Shown: positions 27,444 through 39,833 of the stretch, in pieces
How positions within the stretch are numbered: position 1 is the stretch's first letter
Layout: each line of letters starts with the position of its first letter
The notes under the pieces: generated by a model
What the model saw: only the letters and a program-made list of their open reading frames with translations
Databases searched by the model: none
What the model was told of the DNA's origin: nothing
Translations under genes and position numbers: made by a program
Source: a virus
Strand: one strand, 5' to 3'
Virus record (IMG/VR): IMGVR_UViG_3300050014_000899
DNA length: 64,000 nucleotides

Positions 27444-27548
27444 ATGACAAGGCGTGCAAATATGGATAATTTCGTGGATTGGGGCTTTAATAGAGCAGCC
27501 AATAAAGACGGAGGTTATGGATGCCCGCTAAGGTGGAGAGGTATTTAA
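27444..27548 (+). CDS. attenuator leader peptide of tRNA operon 1 (MTRRANMDNFVDWGFNRAANKDGGYGCPLRWRGI)
   Basis: 34-codon ORF between promoter and terminator; codons 3-24 match downstream anticodons; contains antiterminator GGATGCCCGCT (27519-27529). Confidence 0.8.
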   Translation: MTRRANMDNFVDWGFNRAANKDGGYGCPLRWRGI

Positions 27549-27575
27549 CGAGGTAGTTAAAAAAATCTTTATATT

Positions 27576-27608
27576 AAGCGGGATCCCAACAGGTCCCGCT
27601 TTTCTTTT
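27576..27608 (+). terminator. attenuator terminator upstream of tRNA operon 1
   Basis: AAGCGGGATC-CCAACA-GGTCCCGCTT followed by TTCTTTT. Confidence 0.9.
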
Positions 27609-27675: not shown

Positions 27676-27762
27676 GGTCTCAGGAGCTGCTAGGCGTGGC
27701 TGCCGGACTGTCACTCCGGAACAGGTAAAACTGACAGGTGGGTTCGAATCCCATTGAGACCG
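27676..27762 (+). tRNA. tRNA-Asp(GTC) with long variable arm
   Basis: GGTCTCA/TGAGACC acceptor, CCGGA-CTGTCAC-TCCGG, TTCGAAT T-loop. Confidence 0.85.
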
Positions 27763-27817
27763 CAACAAATATGCTCGGTAAAGCCTCTTATGATAAATAA
27801 CGTAACTGAGTACTTAT

Positions 27818-28611: not shown

Positions 28612-28761
28612 GGGAGTATAGCTCAATGGTAGAGCAATTGGCTGTCTACAGACAGAAGTGTCTGAATAAAAACTTTAGGTGAAGTCTTATGAAGTTAAAG
28701 GAATCAAAATCCTCTTCATCTGCTAACCAATAGGTTCTGGGTTCGAGTCCCTGTGCCCCCG
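28612..28761 (+). tRNA. tRNA-Asn(GTT) interrupted by a 78-nt anticodon insertion
   Basis: ATTGG-CTGT[28646-28723]TAA-CCAAT; G73. Confidence 0.75.
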
Positions 28762-28828: not shown

Positions 28829-29548
28829 ATGAAGAGTTGCGAAAATTGTCAAAAAGAGCATGAAGGAACTTATGGTTCTGGAAGATTTTGTTCAGCTGAA
28901 TGTGCTAGGGGATTTAGCACAAAAGAAAAACGTTCTTTGATAAATGAAAAAATAAGCAAAAAAATGAAAGGATCGGGACATTCTGATATAAAAATAATTT
29001 GTCCTATATGCCAAACAGAATTTGAAGTTTCATGGAATAAAAGAAATCAAAAATTTTGTTCACGAAATTGTTCAATGAGATTTTCTAATTCTCAACCAGA
29101 AAATATAAAAAATTTATCTTTAAAAAGAATCAACAAAATACTTAAAGGACAAGTAAATGATTATGGTATAAAGATGATATATAAATTCAAAAATAAGGAT
29201 ATTAAATGCGATTCAAAAATAGAATTTGCTTGTTTAAATTTTTTTGAAACTAAAGAGGCATCAGAGATGGAAAGATGCAATCTAATTATTGAATATAAGG
29301 ATAAAGATAAAATAAGAAGATTTAATCCGGATTTTAAAATAAAAATAGATAATAATATTTATATTGTTGAAGTTAAGAGTTATATGAGTATTAAATCTAT
29401 AAATGAAAAATGGCGAAATTATAATGAATTATCTAAATTGAAAAAAGAAGCTTTAATAAATTTTTGTCAATTAAATAACTATATTCCCTTTTGGTTTACA
29501 AAAGATTTAAACAGAAATTTTTATAATAATGTTTCGGTCGTACTATAA
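28829..29548 (+). CDS. putative homing endonuclease (Zn fingers plus PD-(D/E)xK)
   Basis: CENC..GSGRFCS, FNPDF..IVEVKS; ATATATA promoter. Confidence 0.8.
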   Translation: MKSCENCQKEHEGTYGSGRFCSAECARGFSTKEKRSLINEKISKKMKGSGHSDIKIICPICQTEFEVSWNKRNQKFCSRNCSMRFSNSQPENIKNLSLKRINKILKGQVNDYGIKMIYKFKNKDIKCDSKIEFACLNFFETKEASEMERCNLIIEYKDKDKIRRFNPDFKIKIDNNIYIVEVKSYMSIKSINEKWRNYNELSKLKKEALINFCQLNNYIPFWFTKDLNRNFYNNVSVVL

Positions 29549-29606
29549 TTGGTCAGACTGCACTCTGTTAAAGTGAATAATGTAGGTTCGAATCCTACCC
29601 GAAACG
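29531..29606 (+). tRNA. tRNA-Asn(GTT), atypical D-arm
   Basis: GTTTCGG/CCGAAAC acceptor, CACT-CTGTTAA-AGTG, T-arm. Confidence 0.75.
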
Positions 29607-30003: not shown

Positions 30004-30079
30004 AGCGACATAGCTCAGTGTGAGAGCGCTCCCGTTCATAGGGAGAGGTGCGGAGGTTCAATTCCTTCTGTCGCTACCA
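30004..30079 (+). tRNA. Met-scaffold tRNA with loop GTTCATA (formal anticodon TCA, or off-centre CAT)
   Basis: AGCGACA/TGTCGCT-A-CCA; CTCCC-GTTCATA-GGGAG. Confidence 0.65.
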
Positions 30080-30247: not shown

Positions 30248-30322
30248 TGCGATATAGAGCAGTGTTAGCTCGCTCCCGGGAAAAGGGAGAGGTCGGAGGT
30301 TCAATTCCTTCTGTCGCGACCA
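30248..30322 (+). tRNA. tRNA with GAA (Phe) anticodon on the same scaffold as 30004
   Basis: CTCCC-GGGAAAA-GGGAG; T-arm identical to 30004; CCA end. Confidence 0.65.
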
Positions 30323-30699: not shown

Positions 30700-30773
30700 T
30701 GGGACACATGTTCCAAGGCAAGGCGAATGAGTTTTGCAAACTTGTTGGGAGGTTTCGATTACCTTTGTCTCCA
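30700..30773 (+). tRNA. atypical tRNA-Ala(TGC)
   Basis: G3-U70, loop TTTGCAA, U1/C72 mismatch, unusual D-arm. Confidence 0.7.
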
Positions 30774-30991: not shown

Positions 30992-31078
30992 GCCGTCGTG
31001 CCAGAGTGGCCAATCGGGGAGGGCTCATATCCCTTGGCTTTTATAGCCCCATAGGTTCGAATCCTATCGACGGTACCA
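30992..31078 (+). tRNA. class II (Leu-like body) tRNA with CAT anticodon
   Basis: GCCGTCG/CGACGGT-A-CCA, loop CTCATAT, variable arm GGCT-TTTAT-AGCC. Confidence 0.8.
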
Positions 31079-33230: not shown

Positions 33231-33638
33231 ATGAGATTTGCAAATGATCCAGCGGAGCCAACAACTCCCACGAACCCGAAATTATCTTCGATAGCTTATA
33301 CATTGTCAAAATTGACTGTATTGGAAGCTAAAGAATTAGCTGATATACTTGAAAACGATTTTGGTATCAAGAAAGCTAAAACAGAGTTTAAACCTGCAGG
33401 ATATGAACCTGTTCCTGAAGTGGAACAAACTGAATTCAATGTTTACCTCAAAGAAATTGGCAATCAAAAATTGCAGGTTATAAAAAAGGTCCATGAAGTA
33501 ATGGGATTGGGTCTTAAAGAAGCCAAAGCATTGGTTGATTCTACCCCCTGTCTTTTAAAAGAAAAGATTTTAAAAGCTGAAGTAACAACCATAAAAGCCG
33601 AATTGGAAAATGTCGGAGCAGTAGTGGAAGTGAGATGA
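33231..33638 (+). CDS. rplL: ribosomal protein L7/L12
   Basis: LTVLEAKELADILE, EQTEFNV, KLQVIK..GLGLKEAKALVD. Confidence 0.93.
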   Translation: MRFANDPAEPTTPTNPKLSSIAYTLSKLTVLEAKELADILENDFGIKKAKTEFKPAGYEPVPEVEQTEFNVYLKEIGNQKLQVIKKVHEVMGLGLKEAKALVDSTPCLLKEKILKAEVTTIKAELENVGAVVEVR

Positions 33639-35135: not shown

Positions 35136-35211
35136 GCGCCGGTATCACGCCTCGCTACGAACGAGGAGAAGTGTAATTGGACACATGAGGGTTCGAATCC
35201 CTTTCGGCGTT
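35136..35211 (+). tRNA. non-canonical tRNA-Arg(ACG) with D-loop relocated 3' of the anticodon arm
   Basis: 7-nt linker, CCTCG-CTACGAA-CGAGG, then AGAAGTGTAATTGGACACAT and a T-arm. Confidence 0.75.
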
Positions 35212-35215
35212 CTAA

Positions 35216-35375
35216 TGGGTAAAGTGTTATACGGTCTGAAGCCCGGGTTTGGGAAATGAATCATCAGAGTACCTCAGGTCTATAAAATAACACAAGAGGG
35301 GAATCTTTTCAGATGATCAATCCTTCAAAGACGCTGAATTTATCCAGGTGGGAAGGGTTCGCCCGATTCTCACCA
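35216..35375 (+). ncRNA. unknown structured RNA
   Basis: TGGGTAAA/TTTATCCA closure, GTGTTAT/ATAACAC pseudoknot, terminal hairpin ending in CCA. Confidence 0.5.
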
Positions 35376-35379
35376 AATT

Positions 35380-35451
35380 GCGGAGGTAGTATAACGGTTA
35401 GTATAGGGCCTTGCCAAGGCTCAGATGGGTTTTCGATTAACCTTCTCCGCA
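35380..35451 (+). tRNA. tRNA-Gly(GCC)
   Basis: GGGCC-TTGCCAA-GGCTC; GCGGAG acceptor. Confidence 0.88.
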
Positions 35452-35503
35452 CAAAGTAGCAAAATTGGTAGAGCGCATGTGAATATATATAGAAAATATT
35501 CGC

Positions 35504-36310
35504 ATGCTACCAAGAAATAAAAAAAATTGTGAAAAATGCAATAAAGAAATAAGTTTGTCTAATTTTAATTTGCATTATTCTTCATGTAAAGGAAATATAG
35601 AAGAAACAAAGATAAGAGTAAAAGAAGAATGGAAATTGGTCAACGGAAAATACAAATGTCCATATTGTAATAAAGAGTATTCGAAGAATGGAATTTCTAC
35701 ACATATTATAAGAAATCATACCGAAAAAGGAAAAGGGCAAAATCCCAATATTGGTTTTTTAAAGGAAACCCAAATTATTTGGAATAAGGGGTTATCAAAG
35801 GAAACAAATAAAAGTCTTGAAAATCTTTCAAAAACATTATTAAAAAAATATAAATCTGGAGAATTAAAATCCGGATTTAAAAATAAAAAACATAATAAAA
35901 TATCATGTGAAAAAATGTCTAAAAGTGCTATTCTAGCATTTCAAGAAGGAAGACATTCTGGATGGGTTTCAAGAAAAATACAAAGTTATCCTGAGATATA
36001 TTTTGAAAAGGTTTTAAAAAGCAAAAAGTTATTTGAAGAATGTATCCCTGAATATTTTATTAAACATAAAAACAATTCTAATTATTTTTTGGATTTTTAT
36101 TTTCCAAATAAAAGGATTAATTTAGAAATTGATGGCTCTCAACATGAATTGGAAGATCGAAAAATATCTGATAATCAAAGAGATAATTTTTTATCAGAAC
36201 AAAATATATTTGTTTTTAGAATAAAATGGAGAAACCCAAAATCATTAGATGGTAAAAAATATTTGGAGAATAAAATAAAAGAATTTATTGAATTATACAA
36301 GCGGAAGTAG
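35504..36310 (+). CDS. putative homing endonuclease (Zn finger plus DUF559/Vsr-like)
   Basis: CPYC..H..H, SYPE, YFLDF..LEIDGSQH..RD. Confidence 0.85.
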   Translation: MLPRNKKNCEKCNKEISLSNFNLHYSSCKGNIEETKIRVKEEWKLVNGKYKCPYCNKEYSKNGISTHIIRNHTEKGKGQNPNIGFLKETQIIWNKGLSKETNKSLENLSKTLLKKYKSGELKSGFKNKKHNKISCEKMSKSAILAFQEGRHSGWVSRKIQSYPEIYFEKVLKSKKLFEECIPEYFIKHKNNSNYFLDFYFPNKRINLEIDGSQHELEDRKISDNQRDNFLSEQNIFVFRIKWRNPKSLDGKKYLENKIKEFIELYKRK

Positions 36311-36373
36311 CTCAGTTGGTAGAGCACCGTCCTTCCACGTCGGGGGTCGCGAGTTCGAACCTCGTCTTCCGCT
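36301..36373 (+). tRNA. tRNA-Gly(TCC)
   Basis: GCGGAAG/CTTCCGC-T, loop CTTCCAC. Confidence 0.93.
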
Positions 36374-36380
36374 CAATTTT

Positions 36381-36452
36381 GCCTCTATGGTGTAATGGAT
36401 AACATGGGTGACTTCGGATCATCTGTTACGGGTTCGAATCCTGTTAGGGGCA
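36381..36452 (+). tRNA. tRNA-Arg(TCG)
   Basis: GGTGA-CTTCGGA-TCATC. Confidence 0.9.
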
Positions 36453-37464
36453 CAACTTTTTTAAACTAAAATAATGAATTATACAAATTATATTTTAAGC
36501 GGAAACTCTATCAATATCAATTCTCTCATCTCCAAAAAAAGATACTTAAAACCAATAACTATTACAATTGCTATTCCAGTAGCTATAGTAGGATTTCTAG
36601 CATTTTCGGGAATATTACCAGCAACCTATATAATAGATCGTGTTAAAGAAGGAGAAATTAAATATCTTAAAGTTATAAGAAAATATAAAAGAAACAAAGA
36701 GTTTCAAGCTTTTTTAGAAACCATTTCAGATGATAAAGAAGAAATGAAAAGAATCAAAAAAATGTATCATTAATCATGAAAAAATTATTCGATGGTCATT
36801 AGGTAAGAAAGTTACCTAAAATAAGACCATTATGAGAAGAAGACATTATTTGAAAACGACTCAAATACTTGAGCACACCACAAATCGTAGAGAATTTAAA
36901 ATTCTTACCACCGTTGATCAAGATCCATATCCTGAAGAGTATGGGTATTACCAAAAGCACAAATGGGGATTCAGAGGATGCAGAAAGTCCAGATTAATCT
37001 GGAAACATCAAGTAAGAATGTATCGTACTTGGAAGCATAATAGAAAAACCCAGTATAAATATAATAAAAACGATGGATATATCCACAATAACGAAGGAAC
37101 AATTTGATTTAGCTTATAATAAGTTTCAACCAAATGCTTGGGTCAAATTTGGATTTAAGTACTTTTCTAATAGTACTTTAAAAGAAAATTTCAAAATAAA
37201 GAAAACTGTAACTTGGATTCTCGGTGTTCTTTTTGGAATTGGTTTTTTAGCAACTGTAATTGGATTACCGCACAATGTAATTGCAGTTCCTGTTCTAATA
37301 TATTCAGGAATTATTGTTATTTTAGCTATTATTATGGGGGGATCCGCTCTAATGAATAATCTGAGAATTAAAAAAATTCAGAAAGAATTAGGAGTAAACA
37401 TTTGGCAATATGAAGCTTTAGTAAATATGTTTTATCCAACCCCTATCAACCCACTTCAAAATTA

Positions 37465-38052
37465 ATGAATAAATTGAGTCCTTTTCTTCAATACAAGGAC
37501 ATCCTTGAGAAATATTTGTCTCCTAAAACCATTTTTAAATTAAAGGAGGCTTGGAATGAACCCAGAAGAAGGTATCATAATGAAGATCACTTATATCAGA
37601 TTTTAAAAGATCTCGAAAAAAGTAAATCAAAAGTATCTTCAGTTCAATGGGAATCTTTAGTAATAGCCGCTTTCTTTCACGATGCTATTTATGTTCCGGG
37701 GAATTCCAATAACGAGGATCAGTCCATTAAAGTTTTCTTAGAGTCTTTTTTAGGAAAAAGATTTGATATGGTTAAAGCTATTAAAGAAATGATCAAAGCA
37801 ACTCAATTTAGAGTGGTTCCAGCGGATAAACTAGTTAAGATTTTTTGGGAAGCAGATAATGCAGGATTCCAGGGACCATTTGAAAGTTTTTTAGAAACCG
37901 AGAAGAAGATTAGATTAGAGTTTGGACATGTTTCTTTGCATACTTATAAGAAAGGAAGACTAAAGTTTCTCAATTCCTGTTTAGGATTAATGGGGCCAAA
38001 AGCAGACGAAAACGTCTCAAAACTAATCGAGTACATAGAAAAAAATTACTAA
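37465..38052 (+). CDS. HD-superfamily metal-dependent phosphohydrolase
   Basis: RRYHNEDH, AAFFHDAIY..NEDQS, EAD. Confidence 0.85.
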   Translation: MNKLSPFLQYKDILEKYLSPKTIFKLKEAWNEPRRRYHNEDHLYQILKDLEKSKSKVSSVQWESLVIAAFFHDAIYVPGNSNNEDQSIKVFLESFLGKRFDMVKAIKEMIKATQFRVVPADKLVKIFWEADNAGFQGPFESFLETEKKIRLEFGHVSLHTYKKGRLKFLNSCLGLMGPKADENVSKLIEYIEKNY

Positions 38053-38589
38053 TTTTAACGTTTTTTCTTCAAAAATATTTTTTTTCTAAGTAAAATAATT
38101 GTACATTTACTATGAAATTAAAAATAAGAGATATGAGAACCACAGGCGTTATCGAATTCGAAGGATTTAAATTCAAAAATACAGAATTTCAATTTAAGAA
38201 CAAGAAAGAGATGAACAGCTTTTTTAATGAGGTTCTTATTGATAGTCCTCAGAGATTCATTAATACTTTGGATCGTTGGAATTTGGAAAATATGCACATT
38301 GCGTTTTCACAATTTATGCTGATGAAAGTTATTGCTTTTTCAGGTCTTGGAATGGGATTAGTATCAATACTTGCAAAGCTTCCGTCAATTGTTGGAATTG
38401 GTTTCGTAGTAATGGCAGCAGTTAATTATATTGCAAGCAAAAAAGCCGAAAAAAGACTTGATAACATCAACTACAGCAGAGGAGATTATGAAATGATGGC
38501 TGAAGGACTTGATGAAGTTCGTGAAGATTTAATAAAAGAAAAAAATTCAAAGTAATACAAAACCTAAGCATTTTTACGTATATAAGATA

Positions 38590-38600
38590 GATATATAAAG
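38590..38600 (+). promoter_or_regulatory. putative phage (late-type) promoter for tRNA operon 2
   Basis: GATATATAAAG. Confidence 0.55.
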
Positions 38601-38621
38601 AAACAACAAAAAGTTAAAACA

Positions 38622-38699
38622 ATGAAAAGGCAGTCCATACATACGATTAGTATTACCTCATCACACGATAAGGGCGGCCTTTTTATGACTAGACTTTAG
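38622..38699 (+). CDS. attenuator leader peptide of tRNA operon 2 (MKRQSIHTISITSSHDKGGLFMTRL)
   Basis: Codons 5-15 are all Ser/Ile/His/Thr and match the operon; alternative 1:2, 2:3 and 3:4 pairings. Confidence 0.87.
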   Translation: MKRQSIHTISITSSHDKGGLFMTRL

Positions 38700-38724
38700 T
38701 ACTAAGATATTAAATGATTTATTC

Positions 38725-38757
38725 AAAGGAAGGCTCCAATCAGTCTTCCTTTTTTTT
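38725..38757 (+). terminator. attenuator terminator upstream of tRNA operon 2
   Basis: AAAGGAAGGCT-CCAATC-AGTCTTCCTTT followed by T-tract. Confidence 0.9.
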
Positions 38758-38762
38758 GTTTT

Positions 38763-38848
38763 GGAGAGTAGCATTCGATGGTGGATAACAGGTCTCGAAA
38801 ACCTGGCCGGCGGTTCAAATCCCAAGGGTTCGACTCCTTTACCCTCCG
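38763..38848 (+). tRNA. tRNA-Ser(CGA)
   Basis: Loop CTCGAAA, long variable arm, G73. Confidence 0.85.
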
Positions 38849-38864
38849 CTAGAAAATAAAATAT

Positions 38865-38954
38865 GGATGGGTACCCAAATTGGTTAAGGGGGCGGTCTTG
38901 AAAACCGTTAGGTCGTGTAAACACGGCGCGTGGGTTCGAACCCCACCTCATCCG
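38865..38954 (+). tRNA. tRNA-Ser(TGA)
   Basis: Loop CTTGAAA, long variable arm. Confidence 0.93.
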
Positions 38955-38957
38955 CAA

Positions 38958-39027
38958 GGGGCGAAACCAACTTCGCAAGTTGGATCTGGATTTAGCTACC
39001 AGATAAGCATATGTGTGATGCTGTCCC
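38958..39027 (+). ncRNA. four-way cloverleaf RNA without tRNA consensus motifs
   Basis: GGGGCG/TGTCCC closing three hairpins. Confidence 0.5.
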
Positions 39028-39033
39028 GGTTAT

Positions 39034-39110
39034 GGTGGTATTAGTGTTAGTGGTAAGCACGAAAGTCTGTGGAACTTTTAGGATGGGTTCGAATCCCATA
39101 TAACACCCCA
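39034..39110 (+). tRNA. tRNA-His(GTG), encoded G-1
   Basis: Loop CTGTGGA, C73, CCA. Confidence 0.92.
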
Positions 39111-39114
39111 TTAT

Positions 39115-39194
39115 GGTAGACGTAGCTTAATTGGTTAAAGGGCCAGATTGTGGATCTGATGCGATTGAGGGTTCGAATCCCTTCGTCTACCCCA
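39115..39194 (+). tRNA. tRNA-His(GTG), second copy, encoded G-1
   Basis: Loop TTGTGGA, C73, CCA. Confidence 0.9.
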
Positions 39195-39195
39195 C

Positions 39196-39268
39196 GCCTC
39201 TATAGTATAGTTGGTAATTATAGCTGATTCGTAATCAGCAGACTGGGATTCGAATTCCCGTAGAGGCT
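39196..39268 (+). tRNA. tRNA-Thr(CGT)
   Basis: GCTGA-TTCGTAA-TCAGC. Confidence 0.9.
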
Positions 39269-39275
39269 CAATAAT

Positions 39276-39349
39276 GCACCCTTAGCTCAGCTGGTAGAGC
39301 ACTTGCTTGGTAAGCAAGAGGTTCCCGGATTCGATCTCCGGAGGGTGCT
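39276..39349 (+). tRNA. tRNA-Thr(GGT)
   Basis: CTTGC-TTGGTAA-GCAAG. Confidence 0.92.
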
Positions 39350-39430
39350 CAAAAGCATACGTGTATGCGACAATAGTGAAGAGTGGTAATACACCCCGCC
39401 GTTAACTTGAGGAGGTCAGGCACTATTTTT

Positions 39431-39515
39431 GGAGGGTTGACCGAGAGGTAAGGTATCGCTCTGGAAAGGCGAAGTCAGGGTTAAACTTGGGTGGGATCGT
39501 TACCCGCATCCTCCG
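39431..39515 (+). tRNA. tRNA-Ser(GGA)
   Basis: Loop CTGGAAA, long variable arm, G73. Confidence 0.87.
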
Positions 39516-39522
39516 CAAAAAT

Positions 39523-39595
39523 ACTGGTGTGGCGCAATGGTAAGCGCAGGACCCTTATAAGGTCAAGGTTGGGGGTTCAAGTCCCTTCACCAGTA
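39523..39595 (+). tRNA. tRNA-Ile(TAT)
   Basis: Loop CTTATAA, A73. Confidence 0.88.
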
Positions 39596-39602
39596 CAAAT
39601 TT

Positions 39603-39679
39603 CGGCCTGTATACCCTCTGTCTGATAAACAGTTGAAAGGTTAGCTGGTTGCATAGTGGTTCGACTCCACTCAGGCCGA
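39603..39679 (+). tRNA. non-canonical tRNA-Ile(GAT) with relocated D-loop
   Basis: CGGCCTG/CAGGCCG, 7-nt linker, CTGT-CTGATAA-ACAG; same architecture as 35136. Confidence 0.75.
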
Positions 39680-39685
39680 CAAAAT

Positions 39686-39758
39686 GGGCGTATCATATAG
39701 TTGGTTAGTATACGTGCCTGATAAGCACGACACGGAGGTTCGAGGCTTCCTATGCCCA
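39686..39758 (+). tRNA. tRNA-Ile(GAT)
   Basis: CGTGC-CTGATAA-GCACG. Confidence 0.9.
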
Positions 39759-39833
39759 CAAATTCTAGAGGGTTAAGAAATGGGGATAGCAATCTAGCCT
39801 GCATTTTTACGGATATATATAATAAATAATATT

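Follow-up and report, generated by a model that had tools for sequence, protein, structure and literature searches.

Circularly permuted and split tRNA genes, found in Cyanidioschyzon merolae and some archaea, are restored to a normal cloverleaf by processing. They are whole-molecule circular permutations or halves, in which the order of the segments departs from that of the cloverleaf. In class II tRNAs (Leu, Ser, bacterial Tyr and Sec), the long segment between the anticodon and T arms forms a hairpin of its own and a normal D-arm is kept. The D-armless mitochondrial tRNAs, such as mammalian mt-tRNA-Ser(AGY) and the nematode mt-tRNAs, have an acceptor and an anticodon stem with no intervening hairpin and are missed by standard finders (PMC7609411). 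They are shortened, are devoid of the D-loop GG and of the canonical T-loop interaction, and need adapted mitochondrial factors. Finally, tRNA-Sec (8/5 or 9/4), tRNA-Pyl and the allo-tRNAs are natural exceptions to the 7/5 cloverleaf for which charging by an aminoacyl-tRNA synthetase is established (PMC7609411, PMC9976931). Their helix lengths or loop sizes are altered, the order of the four arms is kept and none of them shifts a strand of the D-arm past the anticodon arm.

Two genes in the tRNA cluster of an uncultured peat phage most likely show just such a shift, their sequences being those expected of Arg and Ile tRNAs in which the D-arm strands flank the anticodon arm. The window, meaning the whole stretch of 64,000 nucleotides that was analysed (IMG/VR record IMGVR_UViG_3300050014_000899), carries these rewired genes at positions 35136-35211 (anticodon ACG, 35157-35159) and 39603-39679 (anticodon GAT, 39624-39626), both on the plus strand and inside a run of tRNAs of the same orientation. 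They had been pointed out there by a sequence-only reading, and a check of the sequence confirmed the two positions, the 7 nt between the acceptor and anticodon stems and the 20 or 21 nt that follow the anticodon arm. The acceptor, anticodon and T arms are normal in both genes. Canonical class I tRNA-Arg and tRNA-Ile (RF00005; E. coli tRNA-Arg(ACG) and tRNA-Ile(GAU)) share with them a 7-bp acceptor stem, an anticodon arm with U33 and A37, a T arm of the GGTTCRANTCC type, a GG of the G18G19 type, U8- and A14-type bases, A20 (Arg) or U20 and A73 (Ile), and a total length of 76-77 nt. Unlike in these tRNAs, the acceptor arm of the rewired ones is not separated from the anticodon arm by a D hairpin; the D-stem strands flank the anticodon arm, the D-loop replaces the variable loop and leads to the T stem, and the secondary structure is a three-way rather than a four-way junction.

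The Arg gene begins with the 5' strand of the acceptor stem (GCGCCGG, 35136-35142), which forms 7 bp with TCGGCGT at 35204-35210, with a G.U at both ends, and it terminates with a discriminator U at 35211. A UAU linker follows the stem (35143-35145). It is invariant in 103/103 sequences of the family described below, and its residues may represent U8, A9 and a U facing U35174. The triplet CAC (35146-35148), which would be equivalent to positions 23-25 of the D-stem 3' strand, is separated by a single G from the anticodon arm CCTCG/CTACGAA/CGAGG (35150-35166), itself defined by sequence, fold and Rfam alignment. An AGAA linker (35167-35170) then connects the anticodon stem to the triplet GTG (35171-35173), a presumed equivalent of positions 10-12 of the D-stem 5' strand. 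The pairing of CAC with GTG, hereafter helix X, is supported by family covariation, RNAalifold and mutual information. The D-loop-like segment TAATTGGACA (35174-35183) contains a GG at 35179-35180 (G18 G19) followed at 35181 by A20, the main determinant for ArgRS and a member of the bacterial Arg identity set (A20, C35, A/G/U73; PMC9976931, Table 1). A CAU linker (35184-35186), also invariant in 103/103 sequences, leads to the T stem; its last U, as position 48, probably forms the Levitt pair with the conserved A located two bases past helix X. The T arm, GAGGG/TTCGAAT/CCCTT, occupies 35187-35203 according to sequence and Rfam alignment. The AGAA linker, a G26-like base and a complete 5-bp anticodon stem characterize the subtype of this gene, which has 11 close relatives with the triplets CAC/GTG, CGC/GCG, CTC/GAG and CAT/ATG.

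The Ile gene belongs to the main subtype, with a UGAAA linker. Its acceptor stem, composed of CGGCCTG (39603-39609) and CAGGCCG (39672-39678), consists of 7 Watson-Crick bp and is followed by a discriminator A at 39679; the UAU (39610-39612) and CAU (39652-39654) linkers are those invariant in the family. Helix X is formed by ACC (39613-39615) and GGT (39639-39641), again with family covariation. Between its strands are found a single C, the anticodon arm TCTGT/CTGATAA/ACAGT (39617-39633) and the UGAAA linker itself (39634-39638), nearly invariant within the main subtype. The top 'pair' of the anticodon stem is U.U, as in 91/103 family members, which leaves four standard pairs in that stem. 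In the D-loop-like segment TAGCTGGTTG (39642-39651), the GG lies at 39647-39648 and the U at 39649 corresponds to U20, part of the bacterial Ile identity set (A73, U20, A35; PMC9976931, Table 1). The T arm AGTGG/TTCGACT/CCACT covers 39655-39671 by sequence and Rfam alignment. Homologs with 80-87% identity to this gene are present, unannotated, in 42 Streptomyces phage records.

The concern that tRNA finders may miss such genes was well founded, since ARAGORN called 26 tRNAs in the window with neither rewired gene among them, and recovered 0/103 family members. The Rfam tRNA model, with a cut-off of 29 bits, scored the Arg gene at 29.1 bits and the Ile gene at 30.2 bits, in both cases with the D-arm deleted (4 nt vs 15 in the model) and an insert of 17-18 nt in the variable region; a 15-kb-wide Rfam scan reported 35136-35211 alone and not 39603-39679. 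With the family covariance model R1, by contrast, scores of 73.3 bits (E 3e-18) and 86.6 bits (E 5e-22) were obtained for the Arg and Ile genes respectively, all the canonical tRNAs of the window being below 25 bits; the two genes are therefore not chance matches. Neither encodes CCA, and the trailer of the Arg gene is CTA. Codons matching the two anticodons had also been noticed in 'leaders', which are two short ORFs elsewhere: CGT is present in ORF 27444-27548 and ATT occurs twice in the short ORF preceding the Ser/His/Thr/Ile tRNA run. There is no CGT in the 100 nt immediately upstream of 35136.

Relatives were collected from phage contigs with a search pattern that left the triplets and the anticodon unconstrained, which yielded 103 unique sequences. 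The covariation first seen between CAC/GTG and ACC/GGT holds in this larger alignment, where the triplets form a 3-bp helix covarying over more than 100 independent phage sequences. Indeed, columns 11-13 and 37-39 are 100% paired (n=103), exclusively by Watson-Crick pairs with no G.U, and CG, GC, AU and UA are all seen at each of the three positions. Among 164 unique members, 19 distinct perfectly complementary triplet combinations were counted. The acceptor helix is 96.7% paired, with changes on both sides at all 7 pairs, and covariation is also seen in the anticodon and T helices; its overall score amounts to 0.891, vs 0.209 in shuffled controls and no more than 0.156 with slid partners. Helix X is predicted independently by RNAalifold from the family alignment. 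In a blind ranking by mutual information, 16 of the 17 best-ranked pairs belong to helices of the proposed structure, and the three pairs of helix X are within the 16 highest. A viral-contig scan requiring the AGAA linker returned 66 loci and 47 unique parsed sequences, of which 11 are of the subtype of the Arg gene and 36 have a form of the helix with 2 bp plus C.A; in the GCC/AGC subtype, helix X is limited to 2 bp plus C.A.

At the level of sequence comparison, these data show a predicted RNA with a 7-bp acceptor stem, normal anticodon and T arms, and a strictly Watson-Crick helix X of 3 bp. One triplet of this helix just precedes the anticodon arm, the other lies 4-5 nt downstream of that arm, and helix X is connected to the T stem by 13 unpaired nucleotides, UA(R)NNGGNNN-CAU. 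Since the strands of helix X flank the anticodon arm, this arm sits on the helix, the two making one long arm. The RNA can be viewed as an ordinary tRNA core in which a single segment has been transposed. Relative to the cloverleaf, positions 10-21 (D-stem 5' strand and D-loop) would be shifted from the 5' to the 3' side of positions 22-44 (D-stem 3' strand plus anticodon arm), resulting in the order 7-U8-A9-[22-25]-26-[27-43]-44-GAAA-[10-13]-[14-21]-CAU-[49...]. In yeast tRNA-Phe, 9 is in contact with 23, 44/45 with 10, and 21 with 46-48. The new junctions would join these same residues, already touching in the canonical L-shape, so that U8-A14, R15-Y48 and the G18G19/T-loop interaction would still be possible and the L-shape could persist; this three-dimensional argument is built on textbook tertiary contacts. 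At position 11-24, helix X mostly has R-Y, the opposite of the usual Y11-R24, and the mapping of helix X onto the D-stem may for this reason be inexact.

The two genes are quite probably working elongator tRNA genes, Arg(ACG) and Ile(GAU), belonging to a large phage-borne family that departs from the cloverleaf. Host ArgRS or IleRS would recognize the rewired tRNA by the anticodon together with positions 20 and 73 and charge it, and the phage would then use it for decoding. Only seven anticodons occur in the family, either Arg (ACG, UCG, UCU, CCU) or Ile (GAU, UAU, CAU). The conserved GG is followed by A in 52/52 members with an Arg anticodon and by U in 51/51 Ile/CAU members, and the base at this position shares 1.0 bit of mutual information with anticodon position 35; the TA..GG.. 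segment thus behaves as the D-loop it had been taken for, this base tracking amino-acid identity perfectly. At the discriminator position, 51/51 Ile/CAU members have A and Arg members have A, G or U; both elements, as judged from the alignment, correspond to the identity sets of bacterial ArgRS and IleRS. An encoded CCA comes immediately after the discriminator in 55/164 members, vs about 1 in 64 by chance. Of the 'distinct functional architecture' put forward by the sequence-only reading, the distinct and conserved fold is upheld; its functional character is probable on comparative grounds, namely the identity elements, the encoded CCA and isoacceptor replacement. The evasion of tRNA-targeting toxins that was also put forward is speculative.

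Alternatively, these RNAs could be mimics acting off the ribosome, either as decoys that titrate out a tRNA-targeting host enzyme, be it a nuclease or a modification enzyme, or by binding ArgRS or IleRS in a regulatory role, a reading to which a low but appreciable probability is given. Their fold is unlike what EF-Tu and the ribosome normally meet, and the restriction to two amino acids looks as if one host activity were targeted. Moreover, the rewired Ile(GAU) gene fills no gap in the window: canonical Ile(TAT) (39523-39596) ends 6 nt upstream of it and canonical Ile(GAT) (39686-39759), with which it is redundant, starts 6 nt downstream. In the Microbacterium phage Zooman, a canonical Arg(ACG) likewise lies just upstream of the rewired ACG gene. 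A decoy, however, needs no isoacceptor replacement, yet in tRNA-rich loci a canonical tRNA of the same anticodon was found in 6/85 cases with a rewired gene vs 154/431 without one (Fisher p 1.5e-8, a value overstated by the partial contigs and related phages in the sample). This mutual exclusion suggests that rewired genes take the place of canonical tRNAs with identical anticodons. They also fill out otherwise full Arg sets: the window, devoid of canonical ACG tRNA, has canonical UCU, CCU and UCG, which the rewired ACG as sole source would complete, and the Streptomyces phage Mildred21 has canonical CCU only, together with rewired UCG, rewired ACG and a divergent UCU relative. The seven anticodons maintained in intact U33/A37 loops, as well as the identity elements and encoded CCA, which suggest charging, speak further for decoding tRNAs.

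It is improbable that the genes encode D-armless tRNAs whose long variable region is unstructured or folds separately, the triplet pairing being irrelevant. Such tRNAs exist in mitochondria (PMC7609411), and the minimum-free-energy fold of the single sequence 35136-35211 has a GUGU/ACAC hairpin in the variable region. Covariation disfavours this hairpin, which is absent from the Ile gene: across the family 50.2% of its cells are paired and 2 of its 4 pairs never show a compensated change, whereas helix X is compensated at all three. In contrast to the mitochondrial tRNAs, the phage RNAs are full length, with a D-loop motif, a consensus T-loop and a covarying D-stem-like helix. The length of their anticodon-to-T-arm segment (20-21 nt) recalls class II tRNAs, but this segment forms no conserved hairpin and supplies instead one D-stem strand and the D-loop.

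Even less credible is a scrambling confined to the DNA, with the transcript cut and rejoined to a cloverleaf, perhaps by a phage RNA ligase or polynucleotide kinase. An RNA ligase is encoded by Mildred21, TunaTartare and the Microbacterium phage A3Wally, and a polynucleotide kinase by Mildred21 and TunaTartare. Nevertheless, the acceptor-stem ends are in their normal places, which points to an internal transposition and not to a circular permutation, and restoring a cloverleaf would take two cuts and two internal ligations. In the family, conservation is highest at the UAU, UGAAA and CAU junctions, which suits structural elements of the mature RNA better than joints to be discarded, and the carriers, crAss-like phages and others, are too diverse for one shared dedicated machinery. 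As for decaying pseudogenes or chance tRNA-like sequences, a reading favoured by the low scores under standard tRNA models, it is refuted by the number of independent phage sequences, well over 150, in which every helix shows compensated changes, by the invariance of the junction motifs, by identity elements that vary with the anticodon and by the frequent presence of an encoded CCA.

The rewired architecture, common to all these sequences, is essentially phage-borne. Two viral-contig scans detected it in more than 119 and in 66 contigs, and its carriers among cultured phages are Streptomyces, Microbacterium and crAss-like phages. No description of a tRNA with a rewired D-arm was found in a literature search. 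Annotations miss these genes too: in the listed records of Streptomyces and Microbacterium phages, the matching stretch bears no annotation; one rewired copy of Mildred21 carries the annotation tRNA-Phe.

The tRNA gene run of the window occupies 27.6-39.8 kb, lies entirely on the + strand and contains 26 genes called by ARAGORN. Two genes of unusual layout, referred to here as rewired, are embedded in this run: one for arginine with the anticodon ACG (35136-35211, + strand, anticodon loop CUACGAA) and one for isoleucine with the anticodon GAU (39603-39679, + strand, loop CUGAUAA). Both sequences match exactly the positions assigned to them by the sequence-only reading. Each combines a 7-bp acceptor stem followed by its discriminator, a 5-bp/7-nt anticodon arm with U33 and R37, and a consensus T arm made of a 5-bp stem and a TTCRANY loop; the top of the anticodon stem is U.U in the Ile gene and in most of its relatives (91/103). 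A D-arm hairpin (positions 10-25) is not found between the acceptor and anticodon stems. As had been described, the anticodon arm is preceded there by only 7 nt (TAT, a triplet and one further nucleotide) and followed by a stretch of 20 or 21 nt. Measured against the tRNA definition of Rfam (RF00005), the rewired RNAs conform in every arm except the D hairpin. Infernal aligned 4 nt to the 15 D-arm positions of the model and placed 17-18 nt as an insert in the variable region. The expectation that tRNA finders would miss such genes was borne out, since neither element is among the ARAGORN calls and the RF00005 scores, 29.1 bits for the Arg gene and 30.2 bits for the Ile gene, barely reach the curated cut-off of 29. 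The output of a 15-kb Rfam scan listed the Arg gene alone, the Ile gene being absent from it, and homologs in the Streptomyces phage Mildred21 obtained 25.2-32 bits on the Rfam tRNA model.

The main feature of these RNAs is a 3-bp pairing, called helix X, between the triplet located 5' of the anticodon arm and the triplet located 3' of it. Its conservation was evaluated on an alignment (A2) of 103 unique full-length members among the matches listed, aligned without hand editing. In this larger alignment, named beforehand as one of the two points on which the proposal could fall, the covariation of the triplets held: the cells of helix X (columns 11-13 with 37-39) are 100% paired with no G.U, and CG, GC, AU and UA are each seen at all three positions. 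The acceptor, anticodon and T helices likewise covary among these 103 members, and the covariation score of the whole structure is 0.891, as compared with 0.209 for shuffled alignments and at most 0.156 when the partners are slid. RNAalifold recovers the same 3-bp helix X when no structure is supplied, and in a blind ranking by mutual information 16 of the 17 top pairs are helix pairs of the proposed structure, including all three pairs of helix X. Among the 164 unique members listed, 19 distinct combinations of perfectly complementary triplets were counted. The subtype of the window Arg gene, characterized by an AGAA linker, contributes CAC/GTG, CGC/GCG, CTC/GAG and CAT/ATG, and a GCC/AGC subtype has a helix X of 2 bp plus C.A. 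The minimum free energy fold of the Arg gene alone proposes instead a hairpin in the variable arm; this candidate was rejected, being paired in only 50.2% of the family without consistent compensation.

Both window genes fit the layout of R1, the covariance model of the rewired family, which reads UAU, a 3-nt strand, N, the anticodon arm, (U)GAA(A), the complementary strand, UA..GG..., CAU and the T arm. On this model the Ile and Arg genes score 86.6 and 73.3 bits, values that are favoured because both sequences belong to the R1 seed, and canonical tRNAs score below 25 bits. The real test of the R1 family is the occurrence of the same layout in independent phages.

These features can be accommodated in a fold derived from the canonical one. 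In the cloverleaf, the D-stem is stacked on the anticodon stem, and the strand 22-25-26-27 passes through the stack without interruption. In the rewired tRNAs, positions 23-25 would be represented by the triplet preceding the anticodon arm and positions 10-12 by the triplet following it, the segment 10-21 being transposed to behind the segment 22-44. The innermost pair of helix X is C-G in 86/103 members, in agreement with G10-C25. The bases following the 3' strand of helix X would fit U13, A14, R15, N16-17, G18 G19, N20, N and A21, the invariant UAU that follows the acceptor stem would fit U8, A9 and a U facing U13, and a Levitt pair could form between the conserved A15 and the last U of the invariant CAU. 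A (U)GAAA bulge is conserved in the family. In the structure of yeast tRNA-Phe, position 9 contacts 23, 44/45 contacts 10, and 21 contacts 46-48. The three new joints would link residues that already touch in that structure, which by analogy makes an L-shape with the usual elbow plausible.

The anticodons and the residues recognized by the synthetases provide a separate line of evidence. Even if the anticodon was left unconstrained in the search, only ACG, UCG, UCU and CCU (Arg) and GAU, UAU and CAU (Ile) were found among the matches listed, the CAU members being probably of the lysidine Ile2 type. The identity of bacterial tRNA-Arg depends on A20, C35, U/G36 and A/G/U73, and that of bacterial tRNA-Ile on A73, U20, G34/A35/U36, A37, A38 and U12-A23 (PMC9976931, Table 1). 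In the 103 members, the base after the invariant GG is A in 52/52 cases with C35 and U in 51/51 cases with A35. With 1.0 bit of mutual information, this is the single strong covariation outside the helices. The base after GG tracks identity, and the UA..GG.. segment is for this reason read as the D-loop; we infer that this base is the equivalent of position 20. The discriminator is A in 51/51 Ile/CAU members and A, G or U in the Arg members. The Arg identity set is present in 35136-35211, with A at 35181 after GG, the anticodon ACG and a discriminator U, and the Ile set in 39603-39679, with a discriminator A, U39649 after GG and the loop CUGAUAA. The outer pair of the Ile helix X, A39613-U39641, is the equivalent of 23-12, the elements compared being those listed above.

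Two further observations concern the use of these genes. CCA is encoded directly after the discriminator in 55/164 members. In addition, where a locus contains 10 or more canonical tRNAs, the rewired gene is accompanied by a canonical gene of the same anticodon in 6/85 cases, as compared with 154/431 cases in which the rewired gene is lacking, with a p value of 1.5e-8 that is generous because the loci are partial and related. In the window, the rewired Arg gene is the only one with ACG, the Arg set being completed with canonical UCU, CCU and UCG, and the rewired Ile(GAU) is redundant with a canonical Ile(GAU) located 6 nt downstream. In the cultured phage Mildred21 (NC_042008.1; loci L213 and L001), the sole canonical Arg tRNA is CCU and both UCG and ACG are found as rewired genes only. 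In this genome, the rewired Arg(UCG) is mis-annotated as tRNA-Phe(gaa), no annotation exists for the rewired Arg(ACG) or for Ile(GAU), and a divergent relative with a UCU loop (48 bits) is annotated as tRNA-OTHER; these rewired genes and the divergent relative are located at 91367-91442, 94857-94933, 73703-73779 and 86379-86453. Taken from comparative data, the anticodons, the identity elements, the encoded CCA and the replacement of canonical genes argue that the rewired genes would be transcribed, processed, charged and used on the ribosome as tRNAs.

The known departures from the cloverleaf do not account for this architecture. A permuted tRNA gene, in which the 3' half lies upstream of the 5' half and the mature ends are joined in the precursor, is rejected because the rewired genes have normal termini, the two acceptor strands being the gene ends and paired over 7 bp in both genes. 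Class II tRNAs share an extended segment after the anticodon arm but possess a conserved hairpin in the variable region together with a normal D-arm; the rewired RNAs have neither, and the assignment is rejected on the same 50.2% pairing of the candidate hairpin. In the D-armless mitochondrial tRNAs, a short unstructured replacement takes the place of the D-arm and the D-loop/T-loop motifs are lost. The rewired RNAs in contrast keep GG, UA and a consensus T-loop, all invariant, and a D-stem-like helix that covaries, and are therefore not of this type. They also differ from tRNA-Sec, tRNA-Pyl and allo-tRNAs, which are length variants. No description of the rewired fold was found in the literature searched, including PMC7609411 and PMC9976931 (reviews), PMC10690425 (a survey of csRNAs) and PMC5764925 (an announcement on BE1 phages), a coverage that is incomplete and mostly leaves out subscription journals, so that this absence is not proof of novelty.

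The distribution of the family was investigated by BLAST and by pattern searches. Against phage genomes, homologs of the Ile element were detected in 42 Streptomyces phage records, all unannotated, and further matches in Microbacterium phages, in a 462-kb uncultured phage and in the crAss-like Kehishuvirus tikkala of Bacteroides; the Arg element matches Microbacterium and Streptomyces phages. Among these relatives, the acceptor and T stems vary by compensated changes, and the triplets vary yet remain complementary (CAC/GTG, ACC/GGT, CCG/CGG, CTC/GAG). IMG/VR was scanned with patterns in which the junction motifs, GG and the start of the T arm were fixed and the triplets and anticodon left free. 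The first pattern returned at least 119 viral contigs, and a second one, for the AGAA-linker subtype, 66 additional matches. The window DNA itself occurs in peat metagenomes, and no RNA data set is among the runs listed as containing it. A close relative of its phage (IMGVR_UViG_3300037067_024448, 45,520 bp; loci L036 and L165) has copies of both rewired genes, each differing by one or two substitutions; one of the two changes in its Arg copy turns acceptor G7 into A, replacing a G.U by an A-U.

A chromosomal bacterial gene was considered as an alternative, one match being in the isolate Pedobacter nyackensis. The first pattern was found in only 14 places among the bacterial and archaeal representative genomes of 185,579 species, mostly on MAG contigs with dense phage-like tRNA clusters. 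The Pedobacter nyackensis copy adjoins a phage portal gene, and under stricter filters a strong match was present in 1 of the 81 sampled genomes of its family that were searched. A bacterial chromosomal gene is rejected on these counts, and the rewired family is essentially phage-borne. A contig, JBAZIW010000001.1 (362,763 bp, locus L139), filed as a 'Candidatus Paceibacterota' MAG, contains 20 canonical tRNAs within 8 kb and the same rewired Ile(GAU) as IMGVR_UViG_3300029288_000055 (362,763 bp, locus L053), and appears to be a huge phage genome.

In a tree of the 103 members built on non-identity columns, the Arg/Ile labels require 8 changes, as compared with 34.9 when shuffled, which suggests a few coherent lineages. 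These coherent groups and the shared junction motifs tentatively suggest a single origin followed by a few identity switches, although an alignment of 72 columns is too short for counting or dating such switches. It is rather unlikely, in our judgement, that the transposed D-arm is an adaptation keeping recognition by ArgRS/IleRS, EF-Tu and the ribosome and removing a surface needed by a tRNA-targeting activity. Such an activity could come from anticodon nucleases specific for Arg or Ile, from other defence toxins that cleave tRNAs, or from the shut-off of host tRNAs by the phage itself, and the phage would go on decoding Arg and Ile codons during the destruction of cloverleaf tRNAs. If so, the family would offer a natural, transferable and nuclease-proof tRNA scaffold, and the cloverleaf would be dispensable for bacterial translation. 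A dedicated partner protein was sought among the window neighbours, namely the homing-endonuclease-like genes and bL12, and no hint of one was found.

To our knowledge, the four-arm cloverleaf is regarded as near-universal outside organelles. Should the rewired tRNAs be charged and take part in translation on bacterial ribosomes, they would demonstrate that another strand topology can give rise to the L-shaped core. They would also constitute a natural test of the parts of the core read by ArgRS, IleRS, RNase P, EF-Tu, the modification enzymes and the ribosome, and a new starting point for engineering tRNAs, including orthogonal ones. Phage tRNA repertoires are under-counted or mis-called, as with the Arg(UCG) of Mildred21 called Phe(GAA), and inferences on codon usage and host range are affected. 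Direct testing is possible in cultured carriers, namely the Streptomyces cluster BE phages, the Microbacterium phages A3Wally and Zooman, and the crAss-like Kehishuvirus tikkala.

The tRNA region of the window contains other unusual elements, all on the + strand. Two short ORFs, noted as leaders by the sequence-only reading, precede two tRNA runs. The first (27444-27608, MTRRANMDNFVDWGFN...) is followed by a terminator-like hairpin, and the second (~38621-38698, MKRQSIHTISITSSHDKGG...) has a high content of Ser, Ile, His and Thr, in line with the tRNAs encoded downstream. The codons matching the rewired anticodons are present in these leaders, CGT in the first ORF and ATT twice in the second. 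In the immediate 5' flanks of the genes, CGT is missing from the 100 nt upstream of 35136, and ATT occurs once within the 6-nt spacer upstream of the rewired Ile gene. A tRNA at 28612-28761 (Rfam, 49.2 bits), without ARAGORN call, carries an 81-nt insertion in its anticodon loop that folds into hairpins of its own. The gene at 30004-30076, labelled 'SeC' by ARAGORN, has a UGA-reading anticodon, UCA. It shares an identical T arm and an identical acceptor 3' strand with the tRNA-Phe(GAA) at 30248-30319, the remaining body being similar, and may have arisen from that tRNA as an opal suppressor or a UGA-recoding tRNA. The 88-nt tRNA at 27676-27763 (GUC, Asp) has a long D-stem, a long variable arm and a body resembling allo-tRNA or class II, and obtains 29.8 bits with the Rfam tRNA-Sec model, a higher score than with the tRNA model; the 87-nt tRNA at 30992-31078 combines a CAU anticodon, a long variable arm and an encoded CCA. 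Weak tRNA-like genes at 29531-29606 and 30702-30773 (25.4 and 28 bits; GUU (Asn) and UGC (Ala) loops) have poor D-arms and no ARAGORN call, and fall outside the rewired family (at most 24 bits on R1). Homing-endonuclease-like genes and a bL12 gene are interspersed among the tRNAs, an arrangement seen in large phages; the latter, at 33231-33638, encodes a phage ribosomal protein bL12 (L7/L12) with the Pfam C-terminal domain (E 6.9e-23) and the N-terminal dimerisation domain.
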